Virus record (IMG/VR): IMGVR_UViG_3300021959_007005
DNA: 64,000 nt
Strand: one strand, 5' to 3'
Source of the DNA: a virus
Taxonomy: Duplodnaviria; Caudoviricetes
A model generated the notes under the pieces. The model did no database searches, was not told where the DNA came from, and was given only the letters and a program-made list of their open reading frames with translations. Of the stretch, positions 4,864 to 9,593 are shown in pieces. The position numbers and the translations under genes are program-made. How positions within the stretch are numbered: the first letter of the stretch is position 1; each line of letters opens with the position of its first letter.

Positions 4864-5057
4864 AAAACGCAGAATCGCAACGTATTCAAGATAGCGAAGA
4901 ACGTAGACAAGCTATGAAAAAAGAACGCCGGCAGCAAGAAGGCGAAATTATTCATCAAATTAAACAACCTAAAAAAATATACAAAGGCCGTAGTTTTAGT
5001 GGAATTGAAACTTCTTCAGGTACAGTTAATCGTGGGAAGGATTGGTACTCAAAATGA
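4860..5057 (+). CDS. Small hypothetical protein
   Basis: ATGA overlaps at both ends. Confidence 0.6.
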   Translation: MKNAESQRIQDSEERRQAMKKERRQQEGEIIHQIKQPKKIYKGRSFSGIETSSGTVNRGKDWYSK

Positions 5058-5749
5058 AAAACATTAAAGACGTGCTGTTTATAGTACAAGCAAGGACTAA
5101 TAGTCAACGTGTACCTGCAAAAATGACAAGAGAATTTGCAGGTACTTGTCTATTTGAGATATTCATTAATAAGATTAAACAAACCAATATACCAATGGAA
5201 AACTTTTACGCAAGTGTTTGCGATCAAGAACTTATTGATATATGTAACAAACATGAAGTTAACATATTTAATCGCAGTTTAGCGTCACGCAACAGCGAAA
5301 ATGATTTAGTACAAATGTACGAATGGTGGGACAAATTTCCACAATACAAGTATGTTGTATTATTCAATCCATGTTTGCCATTCTTAAGCGTAAATACTAT
5401 AAATCAGTTTGTAGATCAATATGTTAGTAGTGAGCACGATGGCCTTTTTGGTGTTATGTCTAAAAAGCAATACTATTGGAACACCCAAGGTGAAATGATC
5501 ACACCCTGGCCAGCTGGTGTAACTATTATGAACACCAAAGTAGTAGAACCTACACTTGAAGCTGCACATGCATTATACGCTGGAAGACTTGATCTAATTG
5601 GCCAAGAGCGTTGGATGGGTGACTTTACAAAAAACAATCCTGCACTATTTGAAATGAAAGAGTTCGAATGCCTTGATATTGATTACGAATGGCAATTCGA
5701 AGTATATACAACTTATTGGGAAAAACATTATGGTAAAAACAATAGCTGA
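5054..5749 (+). CDS. neuA: CMP-nonulosonic (sialic-type) acid synthetase / acylneuraminate cytidylyltransferase
   Basis: IVQARTNSQRVPAKM, LFNPCLPF, LDIDYEWQF; directly upstream of NeuB. Confidence 0.8.
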   Translation: MKNIKDVLFIVQARTNSQRVPAKMTREFAGTCLFEIFINKIKQTNIPMENFYASVCDQELIDICNKHEVNIFNRSLASRNSENDLVQMYEWWDKFPQYKYVVLFNPCLPFLSVNTINQFVDQYVSSEHDGLFGVMSKKQYYWNTQGEMITPWPAGVTIMNTKVVEPTLEAAHALYAGRLDLIGQERWMGDFTKNNPALFEMKEFECLDIDYEWQFEVYTTYWEKHYGKNNS

Positions 5750-6539
5750 AATTGGCATCAATCACAACGGTGATTTAGGGTTATGCAAAGAAATGATCAC
5801 ACTCGCAAAAAAAGCAGGTGCTGATTATGTAAAATTTCAAAAGCGTGATCCGAATGTTTGTGTACCAGAAGATCAAAAGTCTAAATTAAGAGATACTCCT
5901 TGGGGAGAAATGACATACCTTGAGTACAAGCATCGTATTGAGTTCAATGACGAGTTTTATGAAATTGATCAACATTGTAAAGAAGTAGGAATCAATTGGT
6001 TTGTAAGTGTATGGGATACAAATAGTATTCAGTTTATGGCTAATAATTTTGATACTAGTATAGTAAAAGTACCAAGTGCAAAAGCCACAGACACTGAAAT
6101 TTTAAATATGTGCAATGCCATATATGGTACAGTAATAGTAAGTACTGGTATGTGTACACTGGAAGAAATTGAACAAATTGTTAGATATGTAGACAAGAAT
6201 AAACTTGTACTAATGCACACTGTAAGTACATATCCAGCAAAGACGGCAGATCTACACATTGACACAATTGATTACTTAAAACGTTATCAGGTTCCTGTTG
6301 GATATAGTGGACATGAGTTGGGTAAATTTATTTCAGCTGCACTTGCTCTAAAGGATATTGACTGGCTAGAGCGTCATTTTACTAGTGACAAAACACTGTG
6401 GGGGACTGATCAAAGTTGTAGCTTAGAAACACACGAACTTAAAGAGCTCATAGGAAATATGCAGATGCTCGAGAAGGCACGTGGTACTAGAGTTGGTGTA
6501 TTAGAATGTGAAATCCCGATACTAGAGAAACTAAGGTAA
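5730..6539 (+). CDS. neuB: Nonulosonic acid synthase (NeuB/SpsE family), lacking the C-terminal SAF domain
   Basis: IAEIGINHNGD, VKFQKR, KVPSA, STGM, MHTVSTYP, GYSGHE, LERHFT. Confidence 0.92.
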   Translation: MVKTIAEIGINHNGDLGLCKEMITLAKKAGADYVKFQKRDPNVCVPEDQKSKLRDTPWGEMTYLEYKHRIEFNDEFYEIDQHCKEVGINWFVSVWDTNSIQFMANNFDTSIVKVPSAKATDTEILNMCNAIYGTVIVSTGMCTLEEIEQIVRYVDKNKLVLMHTVSTYPAKTADLHIDTIDYLKRYQVPVGYSGHELGKFISAALALKDIDWLERHFTSDKTLWGTDQSCSLETHELKELIGNMQMLEKARGTRVGVLECEIPILEKLR

Positions 6540-6549
6540 TTTAGTATAA

Positions 6550-7476
6550 ATGCATTTAAATAGAGATCTGGCAATTTTAATTCCAGGATTAACTTACGGT
6601 GGTAGTAAAAGTTCTGAATTTTTATCACATTGTGAACAAATCACAAATCAACTAAACAAAGGTAACATTAATGATGTTACTTTTTATATTAGTACGTGGG
6701 ATCATAAAAATAATAATACACATGATTTAATAACTGCAATTGAAAATTTTGGTTTTAAGTATAAATTAGATATAGAAACTTATCAAACATTTGATCAAAT
6801 CATACATGAAATAATATATGAAGATATGCCAGAGTTTGGAAAGCTCTGGGACAAATGGCTACACGAAGATTTACTCAAAGCTTCACAATGTTCAGCAGTT
6901 GACTACAAGCGTAGACATCTATCGATATACTATAAATTTTATAAAGTGTTTTATATGACACAACACGAACACCTAATTGTTAGGACCAAATCAAACAACG
7001 GAGTCAATCTACCAATACTAGATCTATTAGATTCTCTAGAAGAAACATTAGAATGGAATCAAACAAACAATAAGTTTAAACAACCTAGTAATTTCAATAA
7101 AGAATTAGGAAACGCAAATGAACTTATTAAATATGATAACTGGATATCATGTAACATTGATGGAGTGAGTAACAATGGTCTTGTAAAAGTCAATGAAAAT
7201 GGAATATTTGGATTAAGACCTGTTTTTGAACACAGGATATTTAACTATAATTCACCTAAGGAATTTATACTTAATGGTATAGCGTCTATATACTATCAGC
7301 AGTTCTTGGATAATTTTACAGCATCACAATTAAATAAAAATTTGTCAATGCCGCCTATAGCTAGTGGTAGTTTAGTGTGGGGTCAATATTTTACTAGCAA
7401 ACGTATACAGATACACCCAGTCTGGGCGTCTGCAAATCCTTTCTCTAAAGATGGACAGGTTCATAAAATGTACTAA
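6550..7476 (+). CDS. Hypothetical protein (possibly glycan-related)
   Basis: 308-aa AT-rich ORF after neuB. No family recognised with certainty. Confidence 0.65.
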   Translation: MHLNRDLAILIPGLTYGGSKSSEFLSHCEQITNQLNKGNINDVTFYISTWDHKNNNTHDLITAIENFGFKYKLDIETYQTFDQIIHEIIYEDMPEFGKLWDKWLHEDLLKASQCSAVDYKRRHLSIYYKFYKVFYMTQHEHLIVRTKSNNGVNLPILDLLDSLEETLEWNQTNNKFKQPSNFNKELGNANELIKYDNWISCNIDGVSNNGLVKVNENGIFGLRPVFEHRIFNYNSPKEFILNGIASIYYQQFLDNFTASQLNKNLSMPPIASGSLVWGQYFTSKRIQIHPVWASANPFSKDGQVHKMY

Positions 7477-7479
7477 ATG

Positions 7480-7490
7480 ATAAATAAATA
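7480..7490 (+). promoter_or_regulatory. T4-like late promoter (two overlapping ATAAATA)
   Basis: ATAAATAAATA in the intergenic gap upstream of the aaRS-like gene. Confidence 0.5.
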
Positions 7491-7503
7491 GATGGAAAAA
7501 TAA

Positions 7504-7538
7504 AGCTCAATTTTTTTTGAGCCAATTTTTTTTAGGCT
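7504..7538 (+). repeat. Tandem imperfect palindromes (GCTCAA-T6-TTGAGC and AGCCAA-T8-AGGCT) in the 5' leader
   Basis: Two ~18-nt units that overlap at 7520-7522 and could form mutually exclusive hairpins. Confidence 0.55.
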
Positions 7539-7564: not shown

Positions 7565-8437
7565 ATGACGCAACTCATAAACCCACGAAAATTTACACAA
7601 ACAGTTGGCCTTTTAAGGTCATTTTTTTTGGACAAAGGATTCTTGGAAGTCCACACCCAAAACAGACTAAGCATACTTGCCGCATGTGAAGATCCATTCA
7701 ATGTAGCAACGTACAATTACGCAGGCAACACTTGGCCACTACCCCAAACAGGCCAGATGTGGTTAGAACATGAATTATTAAGTAGCCCCGATAGTAAGGG
7801 GTTTTTTTGTGTCTCCACTTCCTATAGACAAGAGCCAAATGCTATACCAGGCAGACACGATATTATCTTCCCAATGTTTGAATTTGAAATGCCAGGCAGT
7901 GTAGATGATCTCAAAGCAATGGAAATTGAACTGTGTGAATACTTAGGCTTTGATGCACTAACAGAAAAAACTTACAGAGAATGGCAACAGCATTGGGGTG
8001 TAAGTGCAGACACCGAAATGGATGACAGTCACGAAAAAGCTATGGAAATGAACTTTGGTAGTTGTTTGATTACTGACTTTCCAGAACTAACATCACCTTT
8101 CTGGAACATGGCACGTAACGATGATGGCGAAACTGCCAAGAAGATGGATGTTATACTAGGTGGTATGGAAACTATTGGATCAGCAGAACGCTCGTGTGAT
8201 GTTGATATGATGCGTGATACATTCCATAGCATTGTAGACGGAGAGTACGCAGAGTTGTTATTCAAACTATTCGGTAAAGAACGTGTAGAAGCAGAACTAG
8301 AAGAGTTTCTAAAGTTTGACTTCTTCCAAAGAGTAGGTGGCGGAATTGGTATTACACGTATGATCCCTGCACTAGAAAAAATAAATGCACTAAGTGAGCC
8401 AATGGGTATGATTCAACCCATGCTGCGTTCAGCATAA
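7565..8437 (+). CDS. Class IIb aminoacyl-tRNA synthetase paralog (Asp/Asn-like), catalytic domain only
   Basis: Motif 1 LRSFFLDKGFLEVHT, LPQTGQMWLE, motif 2 SYRQEP..RHD..FPMFEFE, ETIGSAER, motif 3 GGGIGITRM. At 290 aa it has no room for an N-terminal anticodon-binding OB fold. Confidence 0.85.
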   Translation: MTQLINPRKFTQTVGLLRSFFLDKGFLEVHTQNRLSILAACEDPFNVATYNYAGNTWPLPQTGQMWLEHELLSSPDSKGFFCVSTSYRQEPNAIPGRHDIIFPMFEFEMPGSVDDLKAMEIELCEYLGFDALTEKTYREWQQHWGVSADTEMDDSHEKAMEMNFGSCLITDFPELTSPFWNMARNDDGETAKKMDVILGGMETIGSAERSCDVDMMRDTFHSIVDGEYAELLFKLFGKERVEAELEEFLKFDFFQRVGGGIGITRMIPALEKINALSEPMGMIQPMLRSA

Positions 8438-8444
8438 AGTTTAT

Positions 8445-8547
8445 TCCAGCCTGGTGGAAATGGTAGACACGGCGGACTGTTTATCCGTTGATTAATAACT
8501 CGCAAAGTATTTAATCGTGCATGGTTCGAATCCTGCGGCTGGAGCCA
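8445..8547 (+). tRNA. trnN: tRNA-Asn(GUU) with a 30-nt variable region (class II-like), CCA encoded
   Basis: Acceptor TCCAGCC/GGCTGGA, discriminator G, CCA. D-arm GTG-GAAATGGTAGA-CAC. Anticodon stem GCGGA/TCCGT with loop CT-GTT-TA. T-loop TTCGAAT. Confidence 0.85.
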
Positions 8548-8556
8548 AAACAAAAC

Positions 8557-8585
8557 TTGACAATACCCTCGATTGTTGCTATTAT
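8557..8585 (+). promoter_or_regulatory. sigma70-type early promoter
   Basis: TTGACA-N17-TATTAT upstream of rnh. Confidence 0.8.
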
Positions 8586-8612
8586 AGGTAGATAAACAAT
8601 TGAGGGTTATTC

Positions 8613-9593
8613 ATGACATATATTCTAGTAGACACAGCAAACATGTTTTTTCGTGCAAGGCATGTAGTACGTGGAGATGATATTGATACCAAAATTGGTA
8701 TGGCATATCACATTATGTTTGCAAGTATTTTAAAAGCATATAGAGACTTTAACGGCAGTCATGTTGTATTCTGTTTAGAAGGACGCAGTTGGCGTAAAGA
8801 CTTTTATGAGCCTTACAAAGCTAATCGCAAAGTAGCTCGTGATGCACTTACTCCTAAGGAAGAGGAAGAAGATAAGGCATATTGGGAAGCATTTGACAAT
8901 CTTAAAGAGTTTATGGAAACTCGAACAAATTGCACAGTACTGCAACACAAACAATGTGAAGCAGATGACTTTATTGCTCGTTGGATACAGAATCATCCTG
9001 ATGATGAACATGTTATTATTAGTAGCGATAGTGACTTTTATCAGTTACTCACAGACAAAGTAACACAGTACAATGGAATTAGTAATCAGCATATTAAAAT
9101 AGATGGCGTTGTAAATGATCGTGGCAAGCCTGTAATTGACAAGAAAACTAAAGAGCAAAAACAAATTGGTGATCCCAGTTGGTTGCTGTTTGAAAAGTGT
9201 ATGAGAGGCGATAGCAGTGATAACGTGTTTAGTGCTTTTCCAGGTGTTCGTAAAAAAGGTACAAAAAACAAAGTTGGTCTACTTGAGGCATTTGCTGATA
9301 AAGATGCAAAAGGCTTTGACTGGAACAATATGATGCTACAACGTTGGGTGGATCATAATGGTGATGAACATCGAGTACTAGATGATTATCTACGTAATGT
9401 AACTCTAGTTGATCTCACACAACAACCTGACGACATTAAAGTAGCATTGGATGATGTTATCACTTCACAAGTACAGGCTACTCCAGTTAGTGGTGTAGGT
9501 ATTCATTTTATGCGGTTTTGTGGAACATATGATTTACAACGTATCAGCGATAACTCTCAAGCACATGCAGAATATTTAAATGCAGCCTACTGA
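8613..9593 (+). CDS. rnh: T4-like RNase H / 5'-3' exonuclease (FEN family)
   Basis: ILVDTANMFFR, WRKDFY..YKANR, EADDFIA, IISSDSDFYQL, GDSSDNV..FPGV. Confidence 0.92.
   Translation: MTYILVDTANMFFRARHVVRGDDIDTKIGMAYHIMFASILKAYRDFNGSHVVFCLEGRSWRKDFYEPYKANRKVARDALTPKEEEEDKAYWEAFDNLKEFMETRTNCTVLQHKQCEADDFIARWIQNHPDDEHVIISSDSDFYQLLTDKVTQYNGISNQHIKIDGVVNDRGKPVIDKKTKEQKQIGDPSWLLFEKCMRGDSSDNVFSAFPGVRKKGTKNKVGLLEAFADKDAKGFDWNNMMLQRWVDHNGDEHRVLDDYLRNVTLVDLTQQPDDIKVALDDVITSQVQATPVSGVGIHFMRFCGTYDLQRISDNSQAHAEYLNAAY

Follow-up and report, generated by a model that had tools for sequence, protein, structure and literature searches.

The window analysed here is a 64,000-nt stretch of the IMG/VR record IMGVR_UViG_3300021959_007005, a 198-kb record (about 55% complete, 36% GC) of a marine jumbo phage. 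At positions 7565..8437, on the plus strand, the list of open reading frames (ORFs) contains a gene for a 290-residue protein resembling a reduced asparaginyl-tRNA synthetase (AsnRS), a class IIb catalytic core with no anticodon-binding domain. Its stop codon TAA (8435-8437, plus strand) is separated by a gap of 7 nt from a 103-nt tRNA (8445..8547, plus strand), which was defined by reading the sequence, by a covariance model and covariation, and by comparison with 159 distinct relatives. A terminator-like hairpin followed by a T run (7505..7522, plus strand) is the probable upstream boundary of this unit. Downstream, the unit is closed by the sigma-70-type promoter of the next gene (TTGACA-17-TATTAT, 8557..8585, plus strand; 11 of 12 positions match, with an extended TG), which begins 10 nt past the CCA of the tRNA. 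The coordinates of the ORF and the tRNA, the gap between them and the position of the promoter had been given in an earlier note on this DNA, and every one of them is correct. As the comparisons described below show, the two genes are co-inherited in hundreds of ocean phages; they probably work as one unit, and we give about an even chance to the explanation that they form a self-contained module for dedicated charging of the tRNA with Asn.

The enzyme

The sole Pfam domain of the protein is tRNA-synt_2 (class II D/K/N, PF00152; residues 12-271, E 4e-16), which bears out the earlier description of a 290-residue protein with class II motifs 1-3 and without an anticodon-binding domain. The OB-fold domain is absent and the protein begins at motif 1 (GFLEVHTQ, in which Gln replaces the usual Pro). 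Motif 2 has the sequence YRQE..GRH..FPMFEFE, and motif 3 the sequence GGGIGITR. A split enzyme with a separately encoded anticodon domain was considered and ruled out, as no ORF is conserved beside the gene. The AlphaFold2 model consists of the catalytic core only, in a confident class II fold (pLDDT 94.6). In a Foldseek search, it matched the catalytic domains of AsnRS, AspRS and LysRS, with an E-value of about 1e-16 and a TM-score of 0.7-0.76 for AsnRS, and EpmA (3A5Z) was also matched. When a profile of 50 diverse family members was compared with the PDB, AsnRS 2xti was the best match (E 1e-14), and archaeal AspRS (1e-12), AS-AR asparagine synthetase (2e-7) and EpmA (5e-5) were matched more weakly.

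None of the corresponding NCBIfam models accepts the protein. The asnS model (TIGR00457) scores 33.1 bits against a cut-off of 342.6, the AS-AR model (NF005055) 19.7 bits over residues 169-244 against 389, and the EpmA/GenX model (TIGR00462) 14.7 bits against 286.9. Bacterial AsnA (TIGR00669) gave no match among the NCBIfam results at E-values up to 1.

The active site was compared using alignments to 2xti and to the AsnRS and AspRS of G002, a cellular genome that carries a member of the same family. Fifteen pocket or catalytic sites are identical across all phage members examined, and 12 of them equal the residues of a genuine AsnRS (Q64, E68, R88, R97, H98, F102, E106, E108, D195, E202, R209 and R265). 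R209 is the Asp/Asn-type Arg (GSxR) and not the LysRS type. The phage segment QTGQMWLE aligns with QSSQLYLE of AsnRS, and the AspRS equivalent is QSPQLFKQ, the Lys of which holds the carboxylate of Asp. In the phage enzyme this Lys is replaced by Leu, and the AsnRS-specific Glu (E68) is present and invariant. Judging from these residues, the enzyme very probably activates Asn or Asp as an adenylate.

An amino acid other than Asn may nevertheless be placed on the GUU tRNA. It could be Asp, to be amidated later by the host GatCAB, or a non-standard Asn-like acid, which would amount to an indirect route or to recoded AAY codons. The motif-2 loop has one residue more than that of AsnRS, Q61 and L67 differ from bacterial AsnRS, and the U1-A72 pair of the tRNA, a bacterial GatCAB determinant, is invariant; all of this would suit such a change of substrate. 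However, it is hard to reconcile with the replacement of the carboxylate-binding Lys of AspRS by Leu, with the invariance of E68 and with the retention of R209, and we regard this explanation as highly improbable.

The partner tRNA

The tRNA has a 7-bp acceptor stem (UCCAGCC/GGCUGGA) that starts with U1-A72 and is followed by G73 and an encoded CCA. Its D stem has 3 bp, the anticodon arm is GCGGA-CUGUUUA-UCCGU and the T arm is GCA(U)GG-UUCGAAU-CCUGC, with one bulged U. The anticodon loop CUGUUUA occupies positions 8477..8483 on the plus strand, where GUU lies at 8479-8481 and a U at tRNA position 37 (8482) takes the place of the usual A37; this assignment follows from the sequence and from loop statistics over the 159 partner tRNAs. 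The variable arm (8489..8518, plus strand, 30 nt) folds into about 10 bp with two bulges and is capped by a CGCAA loop, and its base covaries among relatives. The nucleotides of the tertiary core are canonical (U8, A14, G18-G19 and a TTCGA T loop). The Asn identity marks pointed out earlier, namely GUU, U1-A72 and G73, can be read directly in the sequence and are conserved among the partner tRNAs.

Standard detectors gave no support for this gene. ARAGORN reported no tRNA in the whole window, and in the Rfam search of the window the tRNA family (RF00005) did not reach its gathering threshold of 29 bits; tRNA-Sec was the one family matched at the tRNA, with 15.9 bits and an E-value of 6. The single-sequence fold energy of the tRNA did not differ significantly from that of shuffled sequences (z -0.99). 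The silence of ARAGORN and Rfam was considered as proof that the tRNA is absent, and comparative evidence ruled this out. The long arm and the bulged T stem explain why the detectors miss the window copy. ARAGORN calls the short-arm relatives tRNA-Asn(GTT), and the long-arm ones are missed or miscalled as Asp(atc), Glu(ctc), Gly(acc) or 'Stop'. The copies of the Prochlorococcus myoviruses P-SSM2 and P-SSM7 pass the same Rfam threshold with 52.5 and 52.8 bits.

A covariance model (R1) made from an alignment (A1) of 46 distinct relatives gives the window copy 97.8 bits. In this alignment, compensatory changes are found in 17 of the 24 consensus pairs; U1-A72, G73 and U33-GUU are invariant, and pairs 2-71, 3-70 and 4-69 covary. 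The base of the variable arm changes in a concerted manner among relatives, being GAUUAA/UUAAUC, GGUA/UACC or CUUA/UAAG. Together with the copies of contigs L004 and L009, the window copy forms a small clade in which the T stem is bulged and the arm is among the longer ones. Taken as comparative sequence evidence, these results mean that the window tRNA is real.

A larger set of partners, assembled with a regular-expression detector from 287 phage loci, contained 159 distinct tRNAs after filtering. We removed a false positive (L326), the ordinary tRNA-Asn of G002 that served as a control (L117) and one further sequence that failed the D-arm filter (L194/L196). The detector fixed U1, G34 and U35 by construction and left U36 and G73 free to vary; U1 is supported separately by the covariance-model matches. 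G73 is present in all 159 partners and the GUU anticodon in 158 of them. The partners are 77-111 nt long; the shortest (77-80 nt; L286-L309) have an unpaired variable loop of about 8 nt and the longest (110-111 nt; L314 and L320) a 12-bp arm. A long arm is common, but it is neither constant nor required. The proposal that the arm serves as the recognition handle is not supported, as its length varies widely and it is dispensable among the partners of related enzymes.

What is constant is the U1-A72 pair, G73, GUU and a tRNA-Leu-like D arm with a 3-bp stem. This D arm is nearly identical to that of the phage's own tRNA-Leu(UAA), and the best matches of model R1 outside the family are tRNA-Leu genes. 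The ordinary tRNA-Asn of G002, which starts with UCCUCAG and has the loop CUGUUAA, resembles the acceptor start and the anticodon loop of the partner. The class I body features of bacterial tRNA-Asn (a 4-bp D stem, a short variable loop and A37) are not found in the window tRNA. By its sequence, the partner tRNA is a chimera with Asn-type ends and a Leu-type body, in which A37 has been replaced.

Linkage of the two genes

More than 300 phage loci with a protein 50-100% identical to that of the window were compared, and in about 95% of them the tRNA follows the enzyme gene on the same strand at a distance of 5-250 nt. It was present in 77 of the 78 near relatives in IMG/VR that have downstream sequence, in 54 of 65 loci with an enzyme 50-60% identical to that of the window (downstream and on the same strand) and in 73 of 79 cyanophage-type loci, most of the remainder of which end at a contig edge. 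Isolated phages show the same arrangement. The Prochlorococcus myoviruses P-SSM7, P-SSM2 and P-SSM5 encode homologues of 63-68% identity, annotated as 'tRNA ligase', and an 85-88-nt tRNA-Asn(GUU) follows within about 10 nt. The P-SSM2 genome is complete (252 kb), and Rfam detects a single tRNA in it, the partner. The earlier expectation that homologs would consistently be followed by a long-arm tRNA therefore stands as far as an odd tRNA does follow them, in these isolates as in the contigs, and fails for the long arm, which is not universal.

All ORFs of 327 loci were clustered in a search for other conserved neighbours. If antisense ORFs inside the enzyme gene are left aside, the most frequent other cluster occurs in 29 of the 327 loci. 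The tRNA is the sole conserved neighbour and, since it is also the only tRNA of P-SSM2, the module consists of the enzyme and the tRNA and nothing else. The pair had also been tied to a tailoring island, a suggestion that is not supported, as the neighbours differ from locus to locus. We looked for a link to the upstream genes, to deazaguanine genes or to the tailoring island and rejected it, as there is no conserved synteny and U33 is not conserved either. Bacterial TGT needs U33.

Many loci have further phage tRNA genes around the pair. Some related marine phage contigs have tmRNA (transfer-messenger RNA) genes near it (L014:1018-1382, L016:2480-2895, L035:2528-2914 and L080:1101-1483), with tag peptides such as ANNNYAPEMALAA, and the same contigs also hold ordinary tRNA arrays.

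Flanking sequences and expression

The next gene downstream (8613-9593) is an rnh/flap endonuclease ORF with 54% identity to the RNase H/exonuclease of phage PA5oct. An imperfect hairpin (8562-8611) overlaps this gene's -10 region and ribosome-binding site; its Rfam match to mir-96 (22 bits) is spurious. Three ORFs of 235, 288 and 308 residues lie upstream of the pair (5042-7476) and are not conserved beside it in other phages.

Marine metatranscriptome assemblies contain the region, and one contig covers 7501-8561, which is exactly the ORF and the tRNA, with zero mismatches. This is a weak hint of expression and of the upstream boundary, as contigs cannot show transcript ends and carry-over of DNA is possible. 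Just upstream of the start of this contig at 7501, the sequence GATAAATAAATAG (7478-7495) resembles the T4-type late promoter motif TATAAATA.

Six ordinary tRNAs (Thr, Leu(UAA), Ser, Trp, Met and Arg(UCU)), all with an encoded CCA, are located at one end of the phage record (G000:C1:562-1346). The 198-kb fragment lacks a canonical tRNA-Asn, and a search of the record with TIGR00457 gave no match.

The wider family and the hosts

At depth the enzyme family is small, with 681 clusters at 50% identity, whereas close to the enzyme of the window it is very abundant, with more than 8000 clusters at 90% identity. Its tree has two halves (support 97/98). One half contains marine myoviruses and is linked to the tRNA, with sporadic losses such as L049 and L322. 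The other contains contigs from 'giant virus' bins, huge phages and cellular genomes, none of which has a partner tRNA save L123. To judge from this tree, the private tRNA belongs to a single phage lineage.

The cellular members are found among housekeeping genes on Mb-sized contigs, and most of them retain all catalytic residues. L089, L090 and L091 (1.0-3.8 Mb) carry intact bacterial members beside MutY, photolyase or OMP decarboxylase and near leucine-rich repeat and IcsB-like proteins. Two distant cellular members may be pseudo-enzymes according to their sequences: P0190 (L087) has Ala in place of the motif-3 Arg and has lost several catalytic residues, and P0227 (L086) is changed at D195, E202 and R209. 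P0227 as a query gave no match in the genome contigs. L324 and L336 are homologues on contigs of giant-virus metagenome-assembled genomes (GVMAG); they have no partner tRNA and are grouped together in the tree.

Candidate host genomes were reached through psbA of P-SSM7 and comprised Prochlorococcus MIT 1012, MIT 9302 and SS51, all complete, and Synechococcus RCC307. No asnS above the cut-off was found in these four picocyanobacterial genomes, which may not include the host of the window phage; the best score was 117 bits against 342.6, on ORFs of LysRS or AspRS size. Genes of the asnB type are present in three of the four, and none of the four contains a member of the mini-synthetase family. 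The absence of AsnRS implies that Asn-tRNA is made by the indirect route in such hosts, and the phage enzyme would be their sole direct Asn-charging activity. Host-independent Asn charging gains weight because Prochlorococcus lacks AsnRS.

Function of the pair

Under the explanation that we favour, we infer the amino acid, the charging of the partner tRNA, its ribosomal use and two benefits as follows. The AsnRS-derived core would activate Asn with ATP and transfer it to the 3' end of the adjacent tRNA. Since the enzyme has no anticodon-binding domain, recognition would take place away from the anticodon, at the acceptor end (U1-A72 and G73) and probably also at the Leu-type body. The charged tRNA would then read AAC and AAU codons on the ribosome, which would account for the retention of GUU; AAC and AAU make up about 6.5% of the codons in this 36% GC phage. 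One benefit would be direct charging with Asn where hosts such as Prochlorococcus, which have no AsnRS, use the indirect route. The other would be that the flanks of the anticodon loop are free to change, for instance to escape host anticodon-loop nucleases, while the synthetase is kept.

This explanation has a stronger form, in which the identity rules have moved wholly off the anticodon loop, a core of 270-290 residues reads the acceptor end and the Leu-type body alone, Asn is charged directly in hosts without AsnRS, and positions 33, 37 and 38 are free to evade nucleases. We put it forward tentatively and consider it rather doubtful. If it were true, no smaller class IIb tRNA-charging enzyme would be known, and the pair would be a ready-made candidate for an orthogonal pair.

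Several observations weigh against dedicated Asn charging. About 10 contigs carry the enzyme with no tRNA within 1.5-2 kb. Distant, catalytically intact members in huge phages and cellular genomes stand without a special tRNA, and hence the enzyme family has no general need of one. In the cellular carrier G002, a genuine asnS and two asnB genes accompany the family member, the tRNA-Asn is of the normal kind, and a long-arm tRNA is absent. Furthermore, the pocket residues alone cannot separate AsnRS from AS-AR chemistry because AS-AR, according to what is generally known of it, derives from the same Asp/Asn-synthetase fold. The anticodon loop is also abnormal. Among the 159 partners, position 33 is U in 135, C in 16, A in 6 and G in 2; position 37 is U in 131, A in 18, G in 6 and C in 4; and position 38 is A in 102, C in 42 and G in 15. 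That is, U37 occurs in 82% of the partners, a pyrimidine at position 37 in 85% and a nucleotide other than U33 in 15%. With a pyrimidine at position 37, the modification N6-threonylcarbamoyladenosine (t6A) is impossible in 85% of the partners. As far as can be told from its nucleotides, such a loop is poor for a decoder. Finally, the sole partner with an anticodon other than GUU (L123:2767-2874) carries GUC and G33 and has a variable arm of about 33 nt. It belongs to a 191-kb phage contig of 61% GC, where it lies 424 nt downstream of the enzyme gene, behind a 135-residue ORF.

In one alternative explanation, the enzyme is a tRNA-independent asparagine synthetase of the AS-AR type, which makes Asn from Asp, NH3 and ATP. 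The tRNA would then be charged by the host, either by AsnRS or by a non-discriminating AspRS (ND-AspRS) and then GatCAB, and the two genes would be an 'asparagine supply' pair whose products make no direct contact. AS-AR has the same architecture, an anticodon-domain-less class IIb core of about 290 residues, and its structures 3p8t and 1nnh were matched by the family profile. Cell and huge-phage members manage without a special tRNA, and the invariant GUU, G73 and U1-A72 are the very elements of bacterial tRNA-Asn that are read by ND-AspRS or AsnRS and by GatCAB. However, the enzyme's score with the AS-AR model is far below the cut-off (19.7 against 389 bits) and the matches to AsnRS are stronger. 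Free Asn would be useless for translation in hosts that lack AsnRS. Such a pair would also leave the single conserved neighbour, which is P-SSM2's only tRNA, without a reason to be there, and would give no reason for a tRNA body that is not of the Asn type. Hence, we consider a free-Asn synthetase unlikely.

The odd loop itself has two possible readings. The first, which comes by analogy, is escape from nucleases. PARIS AriB cuts tRNA-Lys, tRNA-Thr and tRNA-Asn(GUU) between positions 40 and 41; the motif U36-A37-A38-U39 is common to these targets and adjoins the cut site, at or around which the resistant tRNAs of T5 have substitutions (PMC12409363). The motif is kept in just 11 of the 159 partner tRNAs. 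A synthetase that ignores the loop would permit such changes, and this would make nuclease escape workable for a pair dedicated to Asn charging. The second possible reading is that the tRNA is not mainly a decoder and that a protein reading bases 34-36 is the reason for the retention of GUU.

In the latter case, the enzyme would charge the tRNA and the product would be mainly non-ribosomal; it could supply aminoacyl groups to a transferase, or act in regulation or as a decoy that soaks up, for example, a GUU-reading host enzyme or nuclease. The invariance of GUU next to decoder positions that are not conserved (of the 159 partners, 24 no longer have U33 and only 24 have a purine at position 37) suits a protein that recognises bases 34-36, and the G33 and GUC of L123 have been counted on the same side. 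Competition by overexpressed phage tRNAs was raised as a possibility in the PARIS paper (PMC12409363). On the other hand, no transferase or other partner gene is conserved nearby, the tRNA core, the T loop and the encoded CCA are fully canonical, the pair often lies within phage tRNA arrays, and U33 is still present in 85% of the partners. A mainly non-ribosomal role appears quite unlikely to us.

If dedicated charging is true, a class IIb synthetase can work with a catalytic core and a co-evolved tRNA alone, which bears on the evolution of tRNA identity and on the minimal size of a synthetase. Very abundant ocean phages would then import direct Asn-tRNA formation into hosts, such as Prochlorococcus, that lack it. 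The odd anticodon loop ties the pair to the question of how phage tRNAs escape tRNA-cutting defences, and a compact, anticodon-blind pair is of interest for genetic-code engineering. If the enzyme makes free Asn only, it is a modest metabolic gene and its tRNA neighbour is unexplained.

Comparison with known systems

In the literature, we found only annotation labels for the pair, such as 'tRNA ligase' in a table of sporadic genes (PMC3037559), and no paper that studies it; the P-SSM2 genome paper does not discuss it.

The closest relative of the enzyme is the catalytic domain of AsnRS (Brugia malayi 2XTI/2XGT, P. horikoshii 1X54 and T. thermophilus 9SH8), which has the same fold and is the best profile match. 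The two share motifs 2 and 3, the ATP and Mg ligands and an Asn-type pocket (the Glu of QSxQLxLE and the Arg of GSxR). In contrast to AsnRS, the phage enzyme lacks the N-terminal OB fold, has Gln in place of the motif-1 Pro and a longer motif-2 loop, and is accompanied by a non-canonical tRNA. AS-AR (P. abyssi 3P8T and P. furiosus 1NNH) is likewise a stand-alone class IIb core of about 290 residues derived from an Asp/Asn synthetase. However, it acts without tRNA and its gene is not linked to one, whereas about 95% of the phage loci combine enzyme and tRNA genes; the profile match to AS-AR is also much weaker. EpmA/GenX/PoxA, which lysylates EF-P, is another truncated class IIb paralogue, and its acceptor has changed. 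EpmA derives from LysRS, whereas the phage enzyme keeps the Asp/Asn-type R209 and has no apparent link to EF-P.

Recognition without reading of the anticodon has precedents in SerRS/tRNA-Ser and PylRS/tRNA-Pyl. Unlike SerRS, the phage enzyme has no coiled coil to hold the arm, and the length of the arm is not conserved. The partner also differs from tRNA-Leu, having the discriminator G73 instead of A73 and an acceptor start and anticodon arm of the Asn type.

Phage 'code-change' operons also place a phage synthetase next to a tRNA, in that TrpRS adjoins a suppressor tRNA-Trp(UCA) that it is thought to charge (bioRxiv 10.1101/2025.10.30.685624). Those synthetases are full-length and the suppressor anticodons reassign stop codons, whereas the present pair combines a truncated enzyme with a chimeric tRNA that carries a sense anticodon. 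The nuclease-resistant tRNA-Lys, tRNA-Thr and tRNA-Asn of T5, which withstand PARIS AriB, are phage tRNAs that are similarly substituted around the anticodon loop, and the U37 of the partner tRNA removes the AriB target motif. However, the T5 tRNAs are ordinary class I molecules charged by the host.

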